From Escherichia phage TM1: 39,817 nt of DNA. Below the pieces are notes generated by a model. The model worked only from the letters and a program-made list of their open reading frames with translations, did not search any database and was not told the DNA's origin. How positions within the stretch are numbered: position 1 is the first letter of the stretch; every line of letters starts with the position of its first letter. Below, piece after piece: positions 2,659-39,817 of this stretch. The DNA lies in sequence record MT808983.1, one strand, 5' to 3'. A program made the translations under genes and the position numbers.

Positions 2659-5340
2659 ATGAGCGTCATCTCTATTGACAAACACGACTTCTCTGATGTG
2701 TCGAACGCCATTGAGCCGTTTAACCTGCTGGCTGACCACTACGGGCAAGACCTTGCAGTCAAGCAGCTTCAGCTTGAGCATGAGGCATACACTGAAGGCG
2801 AGCGACGTTTCATCAAGAACCTTGAGCGCCAGACCGAGCGCGGTGAGATGGCAGACAATCAGGTCGCCAAGCCTTTGATGCAGACTCTGGTCCCTAAGAT
2901 TGCGCAAGCCGTCAAGGAGTGGCATGAAGGCCCAGACGGGAAGCTGTCAACCTCTCGTCCTAGCGTAGCGTTCACCATGTTGAGCACTGAAGATAAGGCC
3001 GTCAAGGACCGCTCTCTGCGCATCTCCTGTGAGTCTGCTGCGGTTATCATACTGAAGGTCATCCTCTCCAAGCTGGTAAAGCCTGAAGGGATACCGATTA
3101 CACCTATGGCCTCCGCGATAGGTCGCACACTTGAAGATGAGATCCGCTTCGGTCGAATCAGAGACAAGGAGCAGGAGCACTTCAAGAAGGCGATAGCTGA
3201 TAACCTGAACAAGCGAGCTGGGGCATCCTATAAGAAAGCCTACATGCAAGCGGTTGAGACCTCCATGCTGGAGCAAGGTCAACTGGAAGATGCGTGGGGA
3301 ACTTGGAGTCCGACAGAGGCGGTACACGTTGGCATCAAGATGCTTGAGATTGTCATACAGTCTACACAACTGGTCGATATTAAGCGTTATGGTGCTGGCA
3401 ATGCAGCGGCTGATGTTGAGATGGTCCACCTGTCAGACTTCTGGGTCAAGAAGATGGCACAACGTGGGTTCAGCCTTGCGGGTATCGCACCAGTCTATCA
3501 GCCTTGCGTAGTTCCACCTAAGCCGTGGACGGGTGTCGTAGGCGGTGGGTACTGGGCCAAAGGTCGCAGACCGTTACCATTGATTCGCTTAGGGTCTAAG
3601 TCTGCGGTAGCACGTTACGAAGACGTGTACATGCCGGAAGTCTATGACGCTGTGAACATCATCCAGAATACACCTTGGAAAGTTAACAAGAAGGTTCTGG
3701 ACGTGGTGAACATGGTCGAGAAGCTGAACAACACGCCTATTGACGACATCCCTCAGATGGAGCCACTAAAGCCTGAGGACTATGCGGGTGAGACCGATGA
3801 AGAACTGAAGGCATGGAAGAAAGCTGCTGCTGGTATCTATCGACGCGAGAAGGCCAGACAGTCGCGCAGATTGTCACTGAGCTTTATCGTCAACCAAGCG
3901 AACAAGTTCTCTCAGTTCAAGGCCATCTGGTTTCCATACAACATGGATTGGCGAGGTCGTGTCTACGCTGTCCCGATGTTCAACCCTCAGGGTAACGACA
4001 TGCAGAAGGGTCTCCTGACTCTGGCAGTCGGCAAGCCTATTGGTGCTGACGGTTTCAAATGGCTGAAGGTACACGGTGCAAACTGCGCGGGTGTTGATAA
4101 AGTCACCTTCGAGGAGCGAATCAAGTGGGTGGAAGACAATCACGACAACATTATGGCTGCTGCTAAGGCACCGATGGATAGTATTGAGTGGTGGGGCAAG
4201 TTAGACTCTCCGTTCTGCTTCCTTGCGTTCTGCTTCGAGTATGCTGGCGTAATGCACCACGGCCTGTCTTACTCCTGCTCGCTGCCGATAGCGTTCGATG
4301 GGTCCTGCTCTGGTATTCAGCACTTCAGCGCGATGCTTCGTGACCACATCGGTGGACATGCAGTAAACCTAACTCCATCCGGCAAGGTTCAAGACATCTA
4401 CCGCATCGTGTCTGACCGCATCGCGGAGGAACTCAAAGTCCTGCTTGTTAACGGTACGGATAACGAGATGGTGACTCACGAGGACAAGAAAACTGGTGAG
4501 ATTACCGAACGTCTCAAGCTGGGGACACGAGAGCTGGCCCGTCAGTGGCTGACCTACGGTATGTCACGTAAGGTCACTAAGCGTTCGGTCATGACTCTGG
4601 CCTACGGGTCGAAAGAGTATGGCTTCGCAGACCAAGTATACGAGGACATCGTGATGCCAGCGATTGACTCAGGGTCTGGCGCTATGTTCACTGAACCAAG
4701 CCAAGCGTCTCGCTTCATGGCTAAGATGATTTGGGAAGCTGTGAGTGTGACCGTGGTTGCTGCGGTTGACGCGATGAAGTGGCTTCAAGGTGCTGCCAAG
4801 CTGCTGGCTGCTGAGGTGAAGGACAAGAAGACTGGAGAAATCCTGAAGCCTTGCCTTCCGGTACACTGGGTAACACCTGATGGTTTCCCGGTCTGGCAGG
4901 AATACCGCAAGAAGGATACAACCCGTCTGAACCTGATGTTCTTAGGGTCATTCAACCTTCAGCCTACAGTCAACAAAGGCACGAAGAAAGAGCTGGACAA
5001 GCACAAGCAGGAGTCAGGCATTAGCCCGAACTTCGTCCACTCACAAGATGGCAGCCACCTGCGGAAGACTGTAGTCCACACTCATCGCAAGTATGGCGTG
5101 ATGTCATTCGCAGTGATTCACGATAGCTTCGGGACCATCCCGGCTGACGCTGAGTATCTGTTCCGTGGTGTCCGTGAGACGATGGTAGAGACATACCGCG
5201 ACAACGATGTGCTGCTTGACTTCTACGAGCAGTTTGAATACCAGCTTCACGAGAGCCAGCGCGACAAGCTGCCTGAGCTTCCGAAGAAAGGTAAACTAAA
5301 TATCGAAGACATCTTGTCTTCAGACTTTGCATTCGCTTAA
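2659..5340 (+). CDS. gp1: Single-subunit DNA-directed RNA polymerase (T7 gp1 homolog, 893 aa)
   Basis: Collinear similarity to recalled T7 RNAP along the whole length (e.g. PYNMDWRGRVYAVPMFNPQGNDM, DGSCSGIQHFSAMLRD, HDSFGTIPADA, C-terminal SDFAFA). Confidence 0.97.
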   Translation: MSVISIDKHDFSDVSNAIEPFNLLADHYGQDLAVKQLQLEHEAYTEGERRFIKNLERQTERGEMADNQVAKPLMQTLVPKIAQAVKEWHEGPDGKLSTSRPSVAFTMLSTEDKAVKDRSLRISCESAAVIILKVILSKLVKPEGIPITPMASAIGRTLEDEIRFGRIRDKEQEHFKKAIADNLNKRAGASYKKAYMQAVETSMLEQGQLEDAWGTWSPTEAVHVGIKMLEIVIQSTQLVDIKRYGAGNAAADVEMVHLSDFWVKKMAQRGFSLAGIAPVYQPCVVPPKPWTGVVGGGYWAKGRRPLPLIRLGSKSAVARYEDVYMPEVYDAVNIIQNTPWKVNKKVLDVVNMVEKLNNTPIDDIPQMEPLKPEDYAGETDEELKAWKKAAAGIYRREKARQSRRLSLSFIVNQANKFSQFKAIWFPYNMDWRGRVYAVPMFNPQGNDMQKGLLTLAVGKPIGADGFKWLKVHGANCAGVDKVTFEERIKWVEDNHDNIMAAAKAPMDSIEWWGKLDSPFCFLAFCFEYAGVMHHGLSYSCSLPIAFDGSCSGIQHFSAMLRDHIGGHAVNLTPSGKVQDIYRIVSDRIAEELKVLLVNGTDNEMVTHEDKKTGEITERLKLGTRELARQWLTYGMSRKVTKRSVMTLAYGSKEYGFADQVYEDIVMPAIDSGSGAMFTEPSQASRFMAKMIWEAVSVTVVAAVDAMKWLQGAAKLLAAEVKDKKTGEILKPCLPVHWVTPDGFPVWQEYRKKDTTRLNLMFLGSFNLQPTVNKGTKKELDKHKQESGISPNFVHSQDGSHLRKTVVHTHRKYGVMSFAVIHDSFGTIPADAEYLFRGVRETMVETYRDNDVLLDFYEQFEYQLHESQRDKLPELPKKGKLNIEDILSSDFAFA

Positions 5341-5633: not shown

Positions 5634-6113
5634 ATGTTCGGTAAGTCAAAACTTAAGGCACAAATCAAAGAGTTGAGCATGAAGGTGGCATACTTGGAGC
5701 GAGTCGTAGAGGTCCGGGACAAGGACAACGAGCGGCTGAAGGTTAAACTTGCTGAATCAGAGCGTAAGCGCCTAACGCCACCAGCTGCTGTAACTGTCAA
5801 GCGTATGGTAGGCATCAAGTTCAAGGCTCTATTCAACGGTATGTACCAACCGGCTGAGTTCAAGACTGGGCCGGGTAACTGTGGGAAGAACGTTAAGCAC
5901 TTCACCATCTCGAAGACTGAACGCACACTGACCATCCACCAGCACCACATAGACGGGTCTCAGAAAGACTTTGAGTACCGACTGAGCGACATCGACGGTA
6001 GAATCCAGTATGACTATGAGCTGGTTAAGGTATACGGTGAGGAGGCTGAACAGGAACGTATAGTCCAAGCCTTCCGCAACAGACACGATTCGTACCCTAA
6101 ACTATCACTATAG
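5634..6113 (+). CDS. Hypothetical protein (159 aa) with coiled-coil-like N-terminus, accessory gene
   Basis: ATG with SD GAAGAGG; its stop codon TAG lies inside the following phage promoter; no recognised motif. Confidence 0.6.
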   Translation: MFGKSKLKAQIKELSMKVAYLERVVEVRDKDNERLKVKLAESERKRLTPPAAVTVKRMVGIKFKALFNGMYQPAEFKTGPGNCGKNVKHFTISKTERTLTIHQHHIDGSQKDFEYRLSDIDGRIQYDYELVKVYGEEAEQERIVQAFRNRHDSYPKLSL

Positions 6114-6375: not shown

Positions 6376-6378
6376 GCC

Positions 6379-6630
6379 ATGAGTAAACGTTGGTTATTCG
6401 ACGCATCACCGAGCCAGTGGTCATCGTTAGGCCGGACCCACAGAGAGATGAGCGAGGCAGGACTTGAGGTCAGAATGGATGACCTGCCGTGCTCCGGAAA
6501 GACTCTGGTCCAAATCATTGAAGCAGACGATGGGAGGATTCTGGTCACGCGCAAATTTAACGAACACGAAATCTTTAGCTGTGAGCAATGGTGCTTGCAG
6601 CAACTGAATGCTTACAGGAGCTGGAAATAA
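6379..6630 (+). CDS. gp1.2: gp1.2-like protein (83 aa; the T7 homolog is a dGTPase inhibitor)
   Basis: Position between gp1.1 and ligase, similar length and C-terminal WK as recalled for T7 gp1.2; internal similarity is weak. Confidence 0.55.
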   Translation: MSKRWLFDASPSQWSSLGRTHREMSEAGLEVRMDDLPCSGKTLVQIIEADDGRILVTRKFNEHEIFSCEQWCLQQLNAYRSWK

Positions 6631-7803: not shown

Positions 7804-8064
7804 ATGTTTAAGAACTTAATGTTCAACCGTTATACCAGTACCTTCCACCTGTCCCACAACCCGTTCGCTTGCATTAAGCGCAACGAGAAGCTGGGATACT
7901 TCGGGAAGGCCGTTAAGCTGTCACCTACAGTCTTCGCTCTGATTACTCCGGGCAAAGCTGAAGAGGCTCGCCAGAAGCGTGAGACCAACGTACCTGTGGT
8001 CTACACTAAGTGGCCCCGCGTTCGTCTGTTCGTTGAGCTCGTGAAGGAGGTGGTAAATGGTTAA
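7804..8064 (+). CDS. Class II hypothetical protein (86 aa)
   Basis: Strong SD (AAGGAGG) before ATG 7804; first gene after the TE-like terminator. Confidence 0.6.
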   Translation: MFKNLMFNRYTSTFHLSHNPFACIKRNEKLGYFGKAVKLSPTVFALITPGKAEEARQKRETNVPVVYTKWPRVRLFVELVKEVVNG

Positions 8065-8392
8065 GCACAAGGAGTGGTGCCGCTGGGTCCTTAGGTTCGG
8101 TTCGTGCGACTGCGGCGCTGTTACCATCATCCCCGCCCCGAGCAGTAAAGATGACGGGGTACGCAAGCCATCCCACTATCAGGTCTTTGATGGCGTGGAA
8201 TCCATTGAGATTATCGCCCGGTCCATGACTGTCAGTGAGTTCCGTGGTTTCTGCATGGGTAACGTCCTGAAGTATCGACTCCGAGCTGGTAAGAAGTCAG
8301 AGCTGGCGACTATGGAGAAGGACCTGAACAAAGCAGCCTTCTATCAGGAGCTGTTCGACCTGCATAAAGGTAAGTGCTATGCTGCCGAGTGA
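8057..8392 (+). CDS. Hypothetical protein (111 aa); tentatively related to the C-terminal region of T7 gp1.7 nucleotide kinase (DUF3310-like)
   Basis: SD GGAGG before the ATG; motif NVLKYRLRAGKK...DLNKAAFY recalled as typical of the DUF3310/gp1.7 family. The assignment is from memory and unverified. Confidence 0.55.
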   Translation: MVKHKEWCRWVLRFGSCDCGAVTIIPAPSSKDDGVRKPSHYQVFDGVESIEIIARSMTVSEFRGFCMGNVLKYRLRAGKKSELATMEKDLNKAAFYQELFDLHKGKCYAAE

Positions 8393-8470: not shown

Positions 8471-8629
8471 ATGACTGAGGTTGAGAAGAAATACATCGTG
8501 GAGCTTGAGGGTCGCGTTCAGTCCTTCGAGGTTCCGGTGTACGCAAAGTCTCTTGAAGAGGCTGCCCTGAAGTCCCAAGAGTATGAGGACGCTGGGTTTG
8601 TGGTCGGACGGATTCGTCCTGAGACCTAA
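8471..8629 (+). CDS. gp2: gp2-like inhibitor of host RNA polymerase (52 aa)
   Basis: [33 protein letters not shown] parallels T7 Gp2 ([34 protein letters not shown]); start placed at ATG 8471 with SD AGGAGCG rather than the upstream alternative start. Confidence 0.75.
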
Positions 8630-8648
8630 ACTATCACTGTAGGACAGA
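8625..8648 (+). promoter_or_regulatory. Phage-RNAP promoter variant (taaACTATCACTgTAGGaca)
   Basis: Family consensus with A to G at -3; precedes the SSB gene. Confidence 0.6.
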
Positions 8649-8686: not shown

Positions 8687-9385
8687 ATGGCTAAAGAGCA
8701 ACTGAAGACTTTCACCACTCCGGTAGCTGGTATCGTTGAGCCTTACGCATGGCTGAACAAAGCAGACACCAAGTTTAACGAGCGTGGTGAGCATAAGGTT
8801 AACCTGACATTCGACCTGAGCAACCCGAAGGTCCGTAAGATGATTGATGTCTTACAGAAGATTCACGACGATGCGTATGCGAAAGCACTCGCAGACCACG
8901 AGAAGAACCCACCTCAGGTTCAGCGTGGCAAGAAGCCTATTGAACCACGAGAAGGCGACATGCCGTGGATTGAGAATGGTGACGGTACTGTTACCCTGAA
9001 GTTCAAATGCTTTGCGTCTTACCTTAAAGACGGCAAGTCCGAGCCTATCGTATTACGGTTCTACGGCACTGATGCTAAACTCATCCGTGACGTCCCGAAT
9101 ATTGGCGCTGGGTCTAAGCTGAAGGTCAAGTTTAAAGTCCTGCCGTTCAAGTGGAACGCTGCGACTGGTGCAAGCGTTAAGCTCCAGCTTGAGTCCTGCC
9201 TTCTGGTAGAGCTGAAGGAGTGGAAAGGTGATGGTGCTGGTGGTGATGGTGGCTGGGGTGATGATGAAGACCTCGGTACTGGCTACAAAGCGTCAACCGA
9301 TGGTGACTTCGGGTCTGATGACTTCGGTGACGATGGCTCCGATGGCGCTGACGACTCTAACTCTGGTGGCGATTACGACTTCTAA
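8687..9385 (+). CDS. gp2.5: Single-stranded DNA-binding protein (T7 gp2.5 homolog, 232 aa)
   Basis: MAKEQ...GDMPWIENGDGTVTLKFKC...GSKLKVKFKVLPFKWNAATGASVKLQLESCLLVEL, with an acidic C-terminal tail ending DYDF, as in T7 gp2.5. Confidence 0.92.
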   Translation: MAKEQLKTFTTPVAGIVEPYAWLNKADTKFNERGEHKVNLTFDLSNPKVRKMIDVLQKIHDDAYAKALADHEKNPPQVQRGKKPIEPREGDMPWIENGDGTVTLKFKCFASYLKDGKSEPIVLRFYGTDAKLIRDVPNIGAGSKLKVKFKVLPFKWNAATGASVKLQLESCLLVELKEWKGDGAGGDGGWGDDEDLGTGYKASTDGDFGSDDFGDDGSDGADDSNSGGDYDF

Positions 9386-9831
9386 TGAAACTTAAAGAGA
9401 AACTGGAGGTTTACTCTGAGGTTTCTCCTACTGGGTGCTGGGAGTGGCAACTCTCCCGGTTCCCTGCTGGATATGGTCGAATATCAATAGGACGTCAGAA
9501 ACAGGACTACGCTCACCGAGTTTCATACAGGGAGTACAAAGGTCCGATACCTGATGGATTGGTTGTTAGACATAAATGTGATAACCCCTGCTGCTGTAAC
9601 CCTGAGCACCTTGAATTAGGTACGCAGAAGGACAACATGAGGGACTGCATGGAGAGAGGACGAAAGTCCAACCCTCCCGTATTCAAAGGAGAAGCTAATC
9701 ATAAGACTAAGCTGACCAAGGAAAACGTAGAGTTCATCTTAGAGTCGATGCTGCCAGCTACAGAACTAGCCAAGATGTTTGGAGTCACACCAGCAGCTAT
9801 AAACTGGAGGAGACAACATGGCTGGACGTAG
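9385..9831 (+). CDS. HNH homing endonuclease (148 aa)
   Basis: H-N-H core HRVSYREY...VVRHKCDNPCCCNPEHLELGTQKDN; ATG overlaps the SSB stop (TAATG). Confidence 0.85.
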   Translation: MKLKEKLEVYSEVSPTGCWEWQLSRFPAGYGRISIGRQKQDYAHRVSYREYKGPIPDGLVVRHKCDNPCCCNPEHLELGTQKDNMRDCMERGRKSNPPVFKGEANHKTKLTKENVEFILESMLPATELAKMFGVTPAAINWRRQHGWT

Positions 9832-10270
9832 CATAAGCAGAGGACATCAAGTAGGGGCCTACCGCTCAGGACTTGAAGCAAAGAACCAAGAGTGGCTTGA
9901 GAAGAACGGCGTGAAGGCTGAATACGAGGCTTATAAAATAGGCTACGTAGTACCGTCCAGCGACCATTTCTACACGCCAGACTTTGTGTTGCCTAACGGT
10001 ATCATCGTGGAGACCAAAGGTATCTTCGATAGTGATGACCGTAAGAAGCACCTTCTGGTACGAGAACAGCACCCAGAGTTAGACATTCGGTTCGTGTTCT
10101 CAAGTTCCCGCTCCAAGTTATACAAAGGGTCTCCGACCACGTATGGCGCATGGTGCGAAAAGAACGGCTATAAGTATGCCGATAAGTTCATCCCGGTTGA
10201 GTGGCTTCGAGAGGCGACTGTACGTCTGCCTTCGGGCATACTCATCCCCAAGAAGAAAGGAGTTAAGTAA
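9818..10270 (+). CDS. gp3: Endonuclease I, Holliday-junction resolvase (T7 gp3 homolog)
   Basis: AYRSGLEAKNQEWLEKNG...YTPDFVLPNGIIVETKG...DDRKKHLLVREQHPELDIRFVFSSSRSKLYKGSPTTYG, collinear with T7 gp3. Confidence 0.92.
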   Translation: MAGRSISRGHQVGAYRSGLEAKNQEWLEKNGVKAEYEAYKIGYVVPSSDHFYTPDFVLPNGIIVETKGIFDSDDRKKHLLVREQHPELDIRFVFSSSRSKLYKGSPTTYGAWCEKNGYKYADKFIPVEWLREATVRLPSGILIPKKKGVK

Positions 10271-10725
10271 TGACTACCTGTAAAGACCTTGAAGTTGGAA
10301 CACGTTACAGATTCTCAAAGAACACCCTGCTGAATAACCCCGGATTCACTGATGCTGTTTTCGAAAAGCGAGAAGACCATAGCGTACTTGTGGAGAAGGG
10401 GTGGCATCCTGAGGATTACATCGGTGAGATTACAAGCTGGAATGGTCACGATACCTACAGTGTAGAAGTTGTTGACCAGCCTCAGGTCCTGCCAGCTTCG
10501 AGCGTACCACCTGTGACTGTGAAGCGTGAAGTCCTGACCATCGACAAGATTGGTGTAGGCCAGACGTTCATCGTCCACGGAAAGCCTGAAGAAGTTTACG
10601 TGAAGATTAGCAACTCACACGTCTTCAACCATAAGCGTCTCCAGATGCACACCACGGACGCACAACGCTTCACCCAGCACCTGAATCTGGTGGTCGTAGA
10701 ATTGGTGGTGTACAATGGTAAGTAA
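10270..10725 (+). CDS. Hypothetical protein (151 aa) between endonuclease I and lysozyme
   Basis: SD AAGGAG; start and stop overlap the neighbours; no counterpart at this position in T7. Confidence 0.6.
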   Translation: MTTCKDLEVGTRYRFSKNTLLNNPGFTDAVFEKREDHSVLVEKGWHPEDYIGEITSWNGHDTYSVEVVDQPQVLPASSVPPVTVKREVLTIDKIGVGQTFIVHGKPEEVYVKISNSHVFNHKRLQMHTTDAQRFTQHLNLVVVELVVYNGK

Positions 10726-11173
10726 GGTACAGTTCAACCCACGGTCCCGGACTGACGCTATCTTCGTTCACTGTTCGGCTACCAAGCCAGATATGGACAT
10801 CGGGGTAGAGACCATCCGTATGTGGCACAAGCAGCAAGGATGGCTGGACGTAGGCTACCACTTTATCATCAAGCGCGATGGTACTGTGGAAGAGGGTCGC
10901 CCGGTCAATGTCGTAGGGTCACATGTTAAGGACTGGAACTCAAAGTCCGTAGGCGTCTGCCTTGTAGGTGGAATCAACGCTAAGGGTCAGTTTGAAGCTA
11001 ACTTCACTCCAGCCCAGATGAACTCCCTTCGCAACAAGCTGGCTGACCTGAAGGCCTTGTATCCTCAGGCAGAAATCAAAGCACACCATGACGTAGCACC
11101 TAAGGCGTGTCCAAGTTTCGACTTGCAACGCTGGTTGACTACCAACGAACTGATCACTTCCGACAACGGTTAA
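10715..11173 (+). CDS. gp3.5: N-acetylmuramoyl-L-alanine amidase / T7 lysozyme homolog (gp3.5)
   Basis: VQFNPRSRTDAIFVHCSATKP...WLDVGYHFIIKRDGTVEEGR...AHHDVAPKACPSFDL, near-collinear with T7 lysozyme. Confidence 0.93.
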   Translation: MVSKVQFNPRSRTDAIFVHCSATKPDMDIGVETIRMWHKQQGWLDVGYHFIIKRDGTVEEGRPVNVVGSHVKDWNSKSVGVCLVGGINAKGQFEANFTPAQMNSLRNKLADLKALYPQAEIKAHHDVAPKACPSFDLQRWLTTNELITSDNG

Positions 11174-11197
11174 TAAATTCTAAAGGAGAACAACTCA

Positions 11198-11413
11198 ATG
11201 ATTAAACTTATCGAATTTCTTGGTCGTCTGGTGGTGCGTGGTTATCGTCGTGCTGCGGTACTGGAACGAAAGGTAGAAAAGAAGAATGCTGACGGTGCGA
11301 CTGATGCTGCTGCTCTGGCTGACAAGCTGACCATCGCGTCACTGGAAGCTGGCATGAAGGCACGTCAAGCTGACACCAAAGCTGACCAGTTGGCTCAGTT
11401 CTTCAAAGCCTAA
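11198..11413 (+). CDS. Small alanine-rich protein (71 aa), unknown function
   Basis: Strong SD AAAGGAGAA; its stop codon TAA lies inside the next promoter. Confidence 0.55.
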   Translation: MIKLIEFLGRLVVRGYRRAAVLERKVEKKNADGATDAAALADKLTIASLEAGMKARQADTKADQLAQFFKA

Positions 11414-11431
11414 ACTATCACCTTAGGGATG
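11408..11431 (+). promoter_or_regulatory. Phage-RNAP promoter variant (taaACTATCACcTtAGGGat)
   Basis: Two substitutions in the -4/-3 region; upstream of the tRNA-like element and the primase-helicase gene; probably weaker. Confidence 0.45.
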
Positions 11432-11476
11432 GGACCATGAGTCCTTTCCCTTTGTTCGCATTTGTGATTAAGAAAT

Positions 11477-11555
11477 GTCTCCATAGCTCAAACGGTAGAG
11501 CGGCGGGTCATGATGGCCTATTGCGATTAGGGTTCGAATCCCCGTGGAGACGCCA
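11477..11555 (+). tRNA. tRNA-like element (possible degenerate tRNA, candidate anticodon CAT; anticodon arm ambiguous)
   Basis: Perfect 7-bp acceptor stem (gtctcca/tggagac), T8, D-arm gctc-aaacggta-gagc with GG, T-loop GGTTCGAATCC, discriminator G and encoded CCA; but 26 nt between the D- and T-arms with imperfect anticodon stem pairing. Confidence 0.4.
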
Positions 11556-11566
11556 ATAAGGAGTGA

Positions 11567-13270
<1,704 letters not shown>

Positions 13271-16003: not shown

Positions 16004-16320
16004 TGGCTATGACAAAACGTATGCGAGTTTCGTTCTCGCTGTGTACTGTATTATCAACTAAAGACATCGAGGGCCTCAATGGGGCTCTCTGCAAGCTGAG
16101 TCGTAAGGTTCTGAACGGAGAGAAGACCACTGGCTTCGAGCGTAAGATGGTAGAGGTAGGTGTTACAGAGGGTATGGAAGCTGTGGTAGAGCTTGTCTTA
16201 AAGAAAGGCATTGTTGACGGGCTGAAAGAAGATCTTACGTCCTACTCAAATAAGCCCAGCTTCGGAGATTTCAGAGTGGAGTTCAAGCTATCTCCTGCTA
16301 CTGTACGGGAGGTGTTCTAA
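16003..16320 (+). CDS. gp5.5-like protein (105 aa)
   Basis: Starts MAMTKR, as recalled for T7 gp5.5; position after DNA polymerase and HNH; ATG overlaps the upstream stop. Confidence 0.55.
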   Translation: MAMTKRMRVSFSLCTVLSTKDIEGLNGALCKLSRKVLNGEKTTGFERKMVEVGVTEGMEAVVELVLKKGIVDGLKEDLTSYSNKPSFGDFRVEFKLSPATVREVF

Positions 16321-16439
16321 TGGCTATCAAGCGTATCAAGAATAAGAAGGAGTGCGACCACTCTTTCGTAGTTAAAGGTGTCATTGGTTTTGCTGCCGAG
16401 AGTGTATTAAATGTGGATATTTTGAGGTTCAAGCAATGA
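16320..16439 (+). CDS. Small ORF (39 aa), unknown
   Basis: SD GGGAGGTG 7 nt upstream; ATG overlaps the previous stop (TAATG); very short. Confidence 0.3.
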   Translation: MAIKRIKNKKECDHSFVVKGVIGFAAESVLNVDILRFKQ

Positions 16440-33468: not shown

Positions 33469-35772
33469 ATGTCCACGATTACACAATTCCCTTCAGGAAA
33501 CACTCAGTACAGGATTGAGTTCGACTACCTAGCCAGAACGTTTGTTGTTGTTACGCTGGTGAATAGCTCTAACCCTACCCTGAACCGTGTACTGGAAGTT
33601 GGTCGAGATTACCGATTCCTTAATCCAACGATGATTGAGATGTTGGTTGACCAATCAGGTTTCGACATCGTTCGTATTCACCGTCAGACTGGAACTGACT
33701 TAGTGGTAGACTTCAGGAATGGCTCAGTGTTGACAGCTAGTGACCTGACCAATGCAGAGCTTCAGGCTATCCATATTGCAGAAGAAGGTCGAGACCAAAC
33801 TGTTGACTTAGCGAAGGAATATGCCGATGCTGCTGGTAGCTCTGCTGGCAACGCTAAGGATAGCGAGGACGAAGCACGACGACTCGCTGCGAGTATCAAG
33901 GCAGCTGGTCTAATTGGCTATATTACCCGTCGCTCCTTCGAGAAAGGCTTCAACGTTACAACATGGAACGAGGTCCTGCTATGGGAAGAGGATGGTGGTT
34001 ATTACCGCTGGGATGGTACGCTACCTAAAGAAGTTCCTGCTGGTTCAACCCCTTCGACAACTGGTGGCGTTGGTCTGGGTGCATGGGTGAGTGTTGGTGA
34101 CGCCTCTTTGCGTTCAAATCTTATTAGTGACAATTCAACTAATGGAGATGCACTGATAACCGTCAAGCAGCCATTTGCTAATTCCACGCCAAGAACGCAG
34201 CATGATAAAAACTCGGACATCATAAATATCCGTGATTTTGGTGCTGTTGGTGACTGGGACCCAGTCACAGACACCGGAACTGACAGCACACAAGCACTTA
34301 TTAACGCGGTTAATGCCGCCGTTTCGTTAGGAGGGGCTGAAATTGTTGTCCCTGAGGGGGTGTTCTGTACTACAAAGCCGTGGTATATACCAAGCGGCAT
34401 CGTTGTCAGAGGTAGTGGGTATAATTCTGTTATTTACAATCATCAGGTTTCTGGTTCAGTTTTCCCGCAAACTAACTGCATTCACGTTGGATATAGCACC
34501 GAGTGGGGAAACAGCGGTGAGCCAATGCCGACGGCCCCTGATGCAAAAATGGCTGAAATTCTGGCAAATAATTTCAGTAACATTACAACAAGGAATTCTC
34601 GTGTAACTAATATCCGCGTAATGAATAAGGGGTTTGGTCTTGGTATTTGGTTCATGAATGCTATGGATTGCTCTTGCGACAATATATGGGCTACTAATAC
34701 TACCACACCAATTAACATAGCCAATGATAACCCCTCGGCAGAAATGGCGTGCAAAAATATATCCGTTGATAATATATTTCAAGATGACGGTACGTTAGGC
34801 GAATGGTACGACCTGGCTTTCTTAGGTTCAGCGCTGGACTGTTCTTTATCTCGTCTATACAATAACCCGAACACAAAAAGTAAATTGGCAGAAATGATTG
34901 CTGTCAACGGTGCTCGTCGTTGCAAACTGTCAAAACTATCCCTTTGCGGTAATGAGGACGGTGTGGACCTGCAAATCGCCACCGGGGTGCTTATTTCTGG
35001 TTCATCTACAGGGAACTCTGTAACTAACTCAACATTCTCTAAGATGTCCAATGGGGTGAGTATCACCGGCACTGGCGGCAACACAGTAAAAGATTGTCGA
35101 GGCGAAAACATTTACACGACAGTATATCTTAACTCACCGAAGAACAAGATTTCCGGATTATCTGGTATTGATGTTGTTAACGACATTAGAGGTAATGTAG
35201 ACGCAATCAAAAATGACATAAATAATTGTAATATAAATTCCGTTAATATTTTCGATGTAAACCCTCCAGCTATGTATAATAGATTCAGAGATAACTCAAA
35301 AGATGATTCTATTCTTTTTAATAACTACAATAGCTATGCTGGGCTTCGTGCGAGAAAGATAGCAATGTTCCCCGCCGACGCTGCCATGCTCGCGTCGGAT
35401 AGAGAAGCAACGACAAATAACCTTGCGCGCATAACCAGAAATTCTAACGGAATATTTTCGTTATATTACAAAATACCTAATAACGTTAAGCAATTAACTA
35501 ATGTTACAGTTTACGGATACGGCGCACAATCCGGTGAAGCTGTAGACATAAGCATTGTTGGCATTGACTCCGATAACAACATAAATGGATTCCCAACATT
35601 TCAGTCACTAGGCACAAAAACTACAACTTCCACCGCCGATTTTGCTTTTGTATTCGGACCAACTAACCCTTTTTATGCTGCGGGTAGTTATTATGTGAAA
35701 GTAACGGTGACAATAGGTAATACTGCGACACAAATAAGGAGTGTTATGCTTGAATGTCTGTGTGATGACTAA
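33469..35772 (+). CDS. gp17: Tail fibre / tailspike (gp17 homolog, 767 aa) with T7-like N-terminal adaptor and a predicted beta-helix depolymerase-like C-terminal domain
   Basis: N-terminus (FDYLARTFVVVTL...DLVVDFRNGSVLTASDL...IHIAEEGRD) parallels the T7 gp17 tail-attachment domain; from about residue 240, INIRDFGAVGDWD...TDDT...ALINAVNAA is a pectate-lyase-3/beta-helix-type start followed by N/S/T-rich repeats; the DNA turns AT-rich from about 34100. Confidence 0.9.
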   Translation: MSTITQFPSGNTQYRIEFDYLARTFVVVTLVNSSNPTLNRVLEVGRDYRFLNPTMIEMLVDQSGFDIVRIHRQTGTDLVVDFRNGSVLTASDLTNAELQAIHIAEEGRDQTVDLAKEYADAAGSSAGNAKDSEDEARRLAASIKAAGLIGYITRRSFEKGFNVTTWNEVLLWEEDGGYYRWDGTLPKEVPAGSTPSTTGGVGLGAWVSVGDASLRSNLISDNSTNGDALITVKQPFANSTPRTQHDKNSDIINIRDFGAVGDWDPVTDTGTDSTQALINAVNAAVSLGGAEIVVPEGVFCTTKPWYIPSGIVVRGSGYNSVIYNHQVSGSVFPQTNCIHVGYSTEWGNSGEPMPTAPDAKMAEILANNFSNITTRNSRVTNIRVMNKGFGLGIWFMNAMDCSCDNIWATNTTTPINIANDNPSAEMACKNISVDNIFQDDGTLGEWYDLAFLGSALDCSLSRLYNNPNTKSKLAEMIAVNGARRCKLSKLSLCGNEDGVDLQIATGVLISGSSTGNSVTNSTFSKMSNGVSITGTGGNTVKDCRGENIYTTVYLNSPKNKISGLSGIDVVNDIRGNVDAIKNDINNCNINSVNIFDVNPPAMYNRFRDNSKDDSILFNNYNSYAGLRARKIAMFPADAAMLASDREATTNNLARITRNSNGIFSLYYKIPNNVKQLTNVTVYGYGAQSGEAVDISIVGIDSDNNINGFPTFQSLGTKTTTSTADFAFVFGPTNPFYAAGSYYVKVTVTIGNTATQIRSVMLECLCDD

Positions 35773-35834
35773 AGCAGACTAACGTATGGTAACAACTTTG
35801 GGTCACGGACGACCCGCTTTAAACTGGAGGTTTT

Positions 35835-36290: not shown

Positions 36291-36345
36291 TGTTAGACTC
36301 AAGGTCATTACTATATGTAGTGGCCTTTATGGTTAACACTAAGGA
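36291..36345 (+). ncRNA. Conserved leader hairpin, candidate RNase III site (R18.5 position)
   Basis: tgttagactcaaggtcattactatatgtagtggcctttatggttaacac; third copy of the conserved element. Confidence 0.5.
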
Positions 36346-36351
36346 GGTTAC

Positions 36352-36753
36352 ATGAAAGATTCATACATAAGTGGCGGTTACTGGAAGGTTACTCGTAATG
36401 GTAAGGTTCATGGAGTTCATAGATTACTATGGGAGGAAGCCTACGGTCCTATCCCAGATGGTTACGTCATAGACCACATTGATAGGAATCCTATGAATAA
36501 CGAACTGTCAAACCTTAGGTGCATACCTAAAGGCGCAAACAAGGCTAACACGGTATCCTCTAGGGAACTGCCTAAAGGCGTATACTCTAGGTTTGCTAAA
36601 CGTCAAGGTGTAACTGTGTACTATGGTGACATTAGGATGGGAGGTAAGAAAGAAACTCATGCGCCTACTGAGAATCTGAAGGAAGTCGTGGAATGGGCTA
36701 AGTCAACTCATAGCAGAATGCTAAAGGAGACATATGGTATTTCAAATGTTTAA
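36352..36753 (+). CDS. HNH homing endonuclease (133 aa) inserted between gene 18 and the spanin genes
   Basis: VHRLLWEEAYGPIPDGYVIDHIDRNPMNNELSNLRCIPKGAN (H-N-H/N motif); SD AAGGAGG; locally AT-rich. Confidence 0.85.
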   Translation: MKDSYISGGYWKVTRNGKVHGVHRLLWEEAYGPIPDGYVIDHIDRNPMNNELSNLRCIPKGANKANTVSSRELPKGVYSRFAKRQGVTVYYGDIRMGGKKETHAPTENLKEVVEWAKSTHSRMLKETYGISNV

Positions 36754-39638: not shown

Positions 39639-39817
39639 TCACAGTTCAAGAACCTCAAGTCTCCCCATAGGCCCTCTTTTAGTCCAGACCAAAGGCCCTA
39701 CCCCAGTCTATCATAAGGTGGGACCGATGGTCAAGACTTCAGGTCAACGATAGGTTGAGGCTATGGCTGGAGGTCGGGACGATAGGTAGGGACTATGGGT
39801 CTGCCTCTAAGTCCCTA
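39639..39817. repeat. Right direct terminal repeat, identical to 1-179
   Basis: Sequence tcacagttcaag...ctaagtcccta matches the first 179 nt of the window. Confidence 0.85.

Follow-up and report, generated by a model that had tools for sequence, protein, structure and literature searches.

A small gene lying next to endonuclease I has been catalogued in several T7-like phages related to K1F. In the records of phages K1F and EcoDS1 it carries the annotation '3.2: gp3.2 protein', in Citrobacter phages CR8 and CR44b the same gene is annotated as 3.01, and in about 200 deposited genomes it is present as a separate CDS labelled 'hypothetical protein'. The genome table of Cronobacter phage Dev2 also names gp3.2 (PMC4925675). 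The literature searched contains genome-table mentions of this protein only, and no functional study. As the sequence-only reading of the DNA described here had stated, T7 lacks such a gene at this place: in its record, gene 3 (10257-10706) abuts gene 3.5 (10706-11161), with nothing in between.

The DNA analysed in this study (the window) is the 39,817 bp sequence of Escherichia phage TM1 (MT808983.1), in which gene 3.2 occupies positions 10270..10725 (+). Exact terminal direct repeats of 179 bp (1-179 and 39639-39817) indicate that the sequence is a complete, linear, T7-like genome. The gene begins with ATG and encodes a protein of 151 aa (17.2 kDa, pI 6.2) belonging to the K1F gp3.2 family. 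It is real but not new, being already catalogued as a K1F-like (Kayfunavirus) gene, and over its whole length it shows 96-97% nucleotide identity to its counterparts in the Kayfunavirus phages Vec13, BDX03P1 and Pipis. The gp3.2 of K1F, EcoDS1 and Dev2 and the gp3.01 of CR8 and CR44b are members of the same family at the same locus; they differ in their N-terminal part, as K1F and EcoDS1 carry a domain of another type (type B) than TM1 (type A), and Dev2 has the core domain only.

Gene 3.2 and its neighbours in phage TM1

The sequence-only reading had described an extra 151-aa ORF of unknown function, with a good Shine-Dalgarno sequence, wedged between endonuclease I and an amidase gene and overlapping both, and the present analysis confirmed this arrangement. 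The upstream neighbour, gene 3 (9818..10270 (+), 150 aa), matches the Pfam family Phage_endo_I (E=5.2e-76) over profile positions 1-147 of 149, and the downstream neighbour, gene 3.5 (10715..11173 (+), 152 aa), encodes an N-acetylmuramoyl-L-alanine amidase that matches Amidase_2 (E=1.9e-16) and PHROG 822 (E=5e-80). The putative Shine-Dalgarno sequence of gene 3.2, AAAGGAG (10256..10262 (+)), was read from the sequence 7 nt 5' of the ATG, and the record of phage Pipis has an annotated RBS at the equivalent position. The TAA stop of gene 3 and the ATG of gene 3.2 have one base in common (TAATG; 1-nt overlap), and the stop of gene 3.2 (10723-10725) is located 11 nt within the gene 3.5 ORF. The last codons of gene 3.2 contain the ATG of gene 3.5, preceded by an RBS-like GGTGGTG (10704..10717 (+)); for related Citrobacter phages, GCTGGTGGTgtacaATG is listed as the RBS of the amidase gene (PMC4925675). 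A mis-called boundary, in which the ORF would be a terminus of gp3 or gp3.5, was ruled out, since both neighbours align end to end with their T7 counterparts (gp3 over residues 1-150 of 150 with 63% identity, gp3.5 over 1-152 of 152 with 67% identity). Comparison of gp3.2 with gp3, gp3.5 and positions 9100-11700 of T7 gave no significant match.

The nearest upstream copy of the putative phage-RNA-polymerase promoter lies 5' of gene 2.5 (8622..8643 (+)). It belongs to a family of 11 copies of a 22-nt repeat with the core CTAAACTATCACTATAGG, recovered in a genome-wide repeat search, whose promoter function we infer from the T7-like consensus. The next copy in the 3' direction is found at 11406-11427, before gene 4, and the repeat search detected none inside 10270-10725. 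As 8622..8643 is the nearest upstream copy, gene 3.2, within the class II block, is probably co-transcribed from it together with genes 2.5, 3 and 3.5; judging from the overlaps, it is probably also translationally coupled to genes 3 and 3.5. No Rfam match was obtained inside gene 3.2, and by-eye inspection of its internal GTG codons revealed no Shine-Dalgarno-like sequence ahead of them.

A tRNA-Met(CAT)-like gene was detected by ARAGORN at 11477-11555 (+), between the promoter copy at 11406-11427 and gene 4, with an Rfam tRNA score of 36.5 bits, the gathering score being 29. The 142-nt stretch that includes it is present in 40 Kayfunavirus records, mostly unannotated among those listed, and three Salmonella phage records label it 'tRNA-OTHER'. 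To our knowledge, T7 has no tRNA gene.

On the other side of the locus, an HNH homing-endonuclease ORF (9385-9831 (+); Pfam HNH_3, E=2.5e-17) is inserted between gene 2.5 and gene 3, in the position that gene 2.8 has in T7, and shares 14 nt with the start of gene 3. This ORF is absent from Pipis and LM33_P1. Endonuclease I (9818-10267) shares 85-90% amino acid identity with close relatives (loci L001-L028; dS ~0.5), compared with mostly 95-100% identity (dS ~0.15-0.2) for the flanking gene 2.5 and gene 4 of the same relatives. The greater divergence of endonuclease I suggests that gene 3 has a separate recombination history, possibly tied to the adjacent HNH insertion.

Conserved core and exchangeable N-terminal domains

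The C-terminal core of gp3.2 (aa 85-151; 10522..10722 (+)) is its constant part. It contains a family signature (10597..10671 (+)) composed of Y110, S114-N115-S116-H117, F119-N120, (Q125)-M126-H127-T128-T129 and R133-F134, which follows the pattern Y..x..SNSHxFN..QMHTT..RF. The signature columns are invariant in 40 sequences, including those of a Providencia-phage branch with 30-35% identity, Q125 being nearly invariant. In a tblastn comparison, the TM1 core was 96-99% identical to the gp3.2 of K1F and EcoDS1. The core is basic, with a pI of 9.5 in TM1 and of 9.5-9.8 in every branch, in contrast with the N-terminal domains, which are acidic to neutral. Presence or absence in related genomes and structure prediction had been proposed as checks in the sequence-only reading. 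As to the first of these, the core was found in 219 phage records, as against 212-244 records with the Kayfunavirus primase, and it is therefore carried by essentially every Kayfunavirus. Among the 44 fetched loci carrying gene 3.2, 19 have a core-only gene of 74-76 aa.

The position of the core is always directly after endonuclease I. The order gene 3 - 3.2 - gene 3.5 is shared by TM1, Pipis, LM33_P1 and Esher7, gene 3.2 of PH1061 and SD6 is also directly 3' of endonuclease I, and the homologue of Providencia phage PSTRCR_120 likewise comes after endonuclease I, the two genes overlapping by 4 nt. Gene 3.2 and gene 3.5 are separated in some genomes by an HNH gene or a different ORF. The PH1061 and SD6 loci (L025 and L026, both at 2946-3317) have at this place a 123-aa ORF whose annotation reads HNH endonuclease in PH1061 and hypothetical protein in SD6, so both flanks of gene 3.2 can take insertions. 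In the PSTRCR_120 locus (L046), an extra 117-aa ORF without NCBIfam match was observed at 1659-2012, between the gp3.2 homologue and the endolysin.

Searches of larger collections recovered only relatives of the same family. A collection of 5.8 billion proteins yielded 254 homologues of gp3.2, and when 1.84 billion representative proteins were searched exhaustively with an HMMER profile, 14 clusters were obtained, all of them gp3.2 relatives. The homologues all reside on contigs of about 39-40 kb, and no relative was detected in 185,579 bacterial and archaeal genomes (one per species). With only 14 clusters and none in prokaryotic genomes, the family is confined to lytic T7-like phages, namely Kayfunavirus and a sister clade of Providencia phages. 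The family matches PHROG 16385 (E=3.5e-51, aa 67-151) and PHROG 15211 (E=5e-40, aa 82-151), both of 'unknown function'. The earlier remark that the protein has no recognisable motif also held in profile searches: gp3.2 had no Pfam match at E<=1 and no NCBIfam match, three gp3.2 profiles had no match among PDB sequences at E<=10, and five architecturally different members had no match among the PADLOC-DB defence profiles. An identity as HNH or homing endonuclease was rejected, given that gp3.2 lacks a Pfam match and the adjacent ORF 9385..9831 matched HNH_3 in the same search.

Structure prediction, the second of the two checks, gave confident models of both domains. According to AlphaFold2, gp3.2 is predicted to have two small SH3-like beta-barrels with a proline-rich linker between them. 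The core was modelled as a six-stranded barrel with a pLDDT >90 once the divergent branch had been added to the alignment, and the type A N-terminal domain as a barrel of five strands plus a short helix, with a pLDDT of 81-93 over residues 1-70; the linker had a low pLDDT in both models. At the level of the predicted fold, the barrels may be compared with FeoA, the C-terminal SH3-like domain of DtxR/IdeR, domain I of EF-P/eIF5A, KOW domains, ribosomal protein L2, Tudor/Sm domains and HspQ. Sequence profiles from Pfam, NCBIfam and the PDB gave no membership in the SH3-like families (FeoA, DtxR-SH3, KOW, Tudor).

The N-terminal part of gp3.2 is an exchangeable cassette. In TM1 it comprises codons 2-70 (10274..10479 (+)) and encodes an acidic (pI 4.8) type A domain. 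It is followed by the proline-rich linker PQVLPASSVPPVTV (aa 71-84; 10480..10521 (+)), which is conserved in alignments of types A, B, C and D and forms their common recombination junction. Nucleotide similarity to phages with other N-terminal types ends at ~10273-10276 and restarts at ~10477-10481, and in every type the cassette has its edges at codon 2 and at the linker, with the reading frame preserved. At least five types (A, B, C, D and E) were distinguished, in addition to the N-termini of the Providencia branch. Comparisons by hhalign detected no homology among the types or between them and the core, all probabilities being <=50%, and an internal duplication is consequently unsupported. 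Type A was found in 26 records, type B in 56, type D in 11, type C in 2 and type E in 4, with ~120 others core-only or untyped. Most type D records are from phages of Enterobacter and most type B records from phages of Escherichia, although the link with host genus is loose. None of types A-E was found outside this locus in a tblastn search of 50,697 phage records, all copies adjoining endonuclease I. When the 5.8-billion-protein collection was searched with a type B profile, the only matches listed were five truncated alleles (41-80 aa) from this locus; full-length proteins were not listed, and the search thus says little on other fusion partners.

The number of N-terminal domains also varies. 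About half of the isolates carry none, from which it follows that the N-terminal domain is not generally required. Others have two in tandem before the same core (P0117; P0121, 226 aa; P0133, 227 aa; P0186, 222 aa), in the combinations B+A, C+A, or another type with A. Natural truncated alleles of gene 3.2 were also recovered (L047 at 2501-2716 and proteins P0190-P0194), one of which encodes a 71-aa product consisting of a type B N-terminal domain only. In P0193 and P0194, an internal deletion has fused the N-terminal part to the final ~40 nt of the gene, in a different reading frame. Such deletion alleles lose the core and retain exactly the 3' end that holds the RBS and ATG of the amidase gene. 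Since the core or most of the gene is lost in these rare natural deletions, gene 3.2 is dispensable in some settings. The modular cassette architecture was not found in the literature searched, and it is this architecture that is now better described.

Codon-level comparisons (pairwise Nei-Gojobori omega) across 27 related loci showed that the core is under strong purifying selection. Its omega values were 0.00-0.17, typically ~0.06, with dS reaching 0.7-1.4, and these low values despite a dS of up to 1.4 indicate that gene 3.2 encodes a translated, constrained protein. In the N-terminal domains of types A and B, omega was mostly ~0.2-0.6. Within type A, mean column entropy was 1.24 bits for the N-terminal domain versus 0.21 bits for the core, and it was similar outside and inside predicted strands (1.26 vs 1.19 bits), with no loop enrichment; type A entropy thus gives no support to a picture of conserved scaffold and variable loops. 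Omega exceeded 1 only in N-terminal domain pairs with <10 substitutions, so that positive selection is undemonstrated for this domain and relaxed constraint would also fit. Synonymous divergence was discordant on the two sides of the linker, TM1 and PH1061 (L025) having a dS of 0.05 in the N-terminal domain and of 0.77 in the core, which shows that the two halves have separate histories. The N-terminal domains are kept as folded proteins, but they are reassorted, and their rate of evolution is 5-10 times that of the core.

Comparison with LM33_P1, a genome 93% identical to TM1 over 86%, placed this exchange in the context of the whole genome. About 14 islands in TM1 had no nucleotide match to LM33_P1, one of which coincides with the cassette (10274-10480). 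The others include 758-1051, 1617-1910, 5635-6093, 6376-6625, 7878-8151, 11165-11406, 16020-16422, 34107-35776 and 36341-36741. Outside gp3.2, the islands cover small early and middle ORFs, the HNH gene, the ORF at 11198..11413, which comes after the amidase gene, and the C-terminal part of ORF 33469..35772. Only two of the islands are intragenic, that of gp3.2 and that at 34107-35776, the latter corresponding to the C-terminal part of ORF 33469..35772, whose matching gene in LM33_P1 is annotated 'tail fibers'.

Candidate roles of gp3.2

We tentatively read gp3.2 as a modular host-takeover or counter-defence protein that binds or serves as an adaptor, a role that appears possible on the present evidence. 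Binding rather than catalysis, a conserved partner and a part in host conflict are what we infer here. The protein would be a small, soluble middle (class II) product without catalytic signature that acts by binding, as suggested by the lack of any sign of catalysis together with two tethered small barrels. Its constant core would dock on one conserved partner, which could be a phage or host hub protein or a nucleic acid, the latter being considered because of the charge and the predicted fold of the core. The exchangeable N-terminal module would add a strain-specific target. This adaptor role is proposed because a frozen core that can stand alone is combined with a bounded, exchangeable, fast-evolving N-terminal module that may be doubled or lost.

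Several T7 proteins contribute to host takeover, such as the dGTPase inhibitor gp1.2, the RNAP inhibitor gp2, the Lon inhibitor gp4.5, the H-NS binder gp5.5, gp5.7 and the RecBCD inhibitor gp5.9. By analogy, gp3.2 resembles the class II takeover proteins in being short, non-structural, restricted to a lineage and encoded among DNA-metabolism genes, and it could likewise act by binding a host protein, as these proteins do. However, gp3.2 has no sequence similarity to them, the exhaustive HMMER search having recovered gp3.2 relatives only, and we know of none among these takeover proteins that has an exchangeable-domain architecture.

A second likeness is found with the tailspike or tail fiber (gp17) of T7-like and K1-type phages, in which, as proposed for gp3.2, a constant anchor is combined with a bounded, horizontally exchanged specificity part, in their case a receptor-binding or enzymatic domain. 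Unlike the tail fiber, gp3.2 is encoded in the non-structural class II block and its variable part is N-terminal, reversing the polarity; moreover, its modules have ~70 aa versus hundreds in the tail fiber, and no receptor function is implied.

A more specific form of the takeover proposal is a modular counter-defence system, in which the shuffled cassettes of at least five types would each neutralise a different strain-specific immunity factor and the core would tether them to a hub, either phage DNA or a host hub protein, with the cassettes recombining at the proline-rich linker. We regard this form as unlikely.

The main rival, ranked below the adaptor reading and in our view doubtful, is that gp3.2 is a nucleic-acid-binding accessory of phage DNA metabolism that works with endonuclease I or modulates it, with the N-terminal domains tuning its activity. 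In this case the core could bind either DNA or RNA, as do Sso7d, the C-terminal domain of integrase, and KOW or Sm barrels, and the basic charge of the core, its predicted fold neighbours and the invariant synteny with endonuclease I are all consistent with such a role. However, gene 3.2 is missing from T7, T3 and most other Studiervirinae, in which the same pathway operates, and the locus with a core-deleted allele (L047) has an intact endonuclease I. Core-less alleles next to an intact gene 3 indicate that the core is not an obligatory partner or antidote of this enzyme. The adjacency itself is weak evidence, as gene order is generally conserved in T7-like phages, and housekeeping DNA binding would leave at least five unrelated, exchangeable N-terminal domains unexplained.

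It is also conceivable, though quite improbable, that the N-terminal diversity is functionless and results from a recombination hot spot, relaxed constraint or HNH-driven gene conversion, with the core having a minor conserved role. The HNH genes at 9385..9831 and between genes 3.2 and 3.5 in PH1061 and SD6 would fit this explanation, as would the N-terminal omega of ~0.2-0.6, which is compatible with relaxed constraint, the equal variability of predicted strands and loops, the half of the records without an N-terminal domain and the few truncated genes. Nevertheless, the type A domain is modelled with a pLDDT of around 90 from only 22 sequences, and type B retains 16 invariant and 14 nearly invariant positions among alleles that are 55-70% identical. 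Omega remains clearly <1 at dS above 0.5, and such values over a long divergence argue that the N-terminal domains are maintained as folded proteins. The in-frame cassette boundaries in every type also speak against a neutral origin, as does the observation that the type B profile matches listed were the five short truncated alleles of this locus.

That the ORF is no independent gene, being a mis-called extension or a chance ORF, has practically no probability and is refuted, as nothing but the tight overlaps on either side speaks for it, while gene 3.2 has its own Shine-Dalgarno sequence and ATG, is under purifying selection in its own frame and is a CDS in over 200 genomes, and both neighbours are full length against T7 and Pfam and share no similarity with it.

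Implications for Kayfunavirus biology

Many phages of Salmonella Typhi, Enterobacter and E. coli belong, with K1F and LM33_P1, to the Kayfunaviruses, a group that is widely isolated for therapeutic use and whose host range is usually ascribed to the tailspike alone. Within this genus, gp3.2 is encoded by one of the few genus-wide genes that have neither a T7 counterpart nor an assigned function. In the comparison with LM33_P1 it is also the only locus, besides the tail-fiber gene, with a cassette-like exchange of domains inside a gene. For an accessory gene of a phage, these findings hold no great surprise, and the cassette architecture is modestly interesting. If the core proved to be an accessory of DNA metabolism, gene 3.2 would represent a modification, particular to this lineage, of the replication and recombination module known from T7. 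If the cassettes act in counter-defence, host range would depend in part on the type of cassette, separately from the tailspike. More generally, if the adaptor reading holds and the variable domain targets strain-specific host factors, gp3.2 would help, from inside the cell, to determine the strains that a phage can kill, as a second factor beside the tailspike, and its compact scaffold could also be used in the search for new interactions between phage and host proteins.
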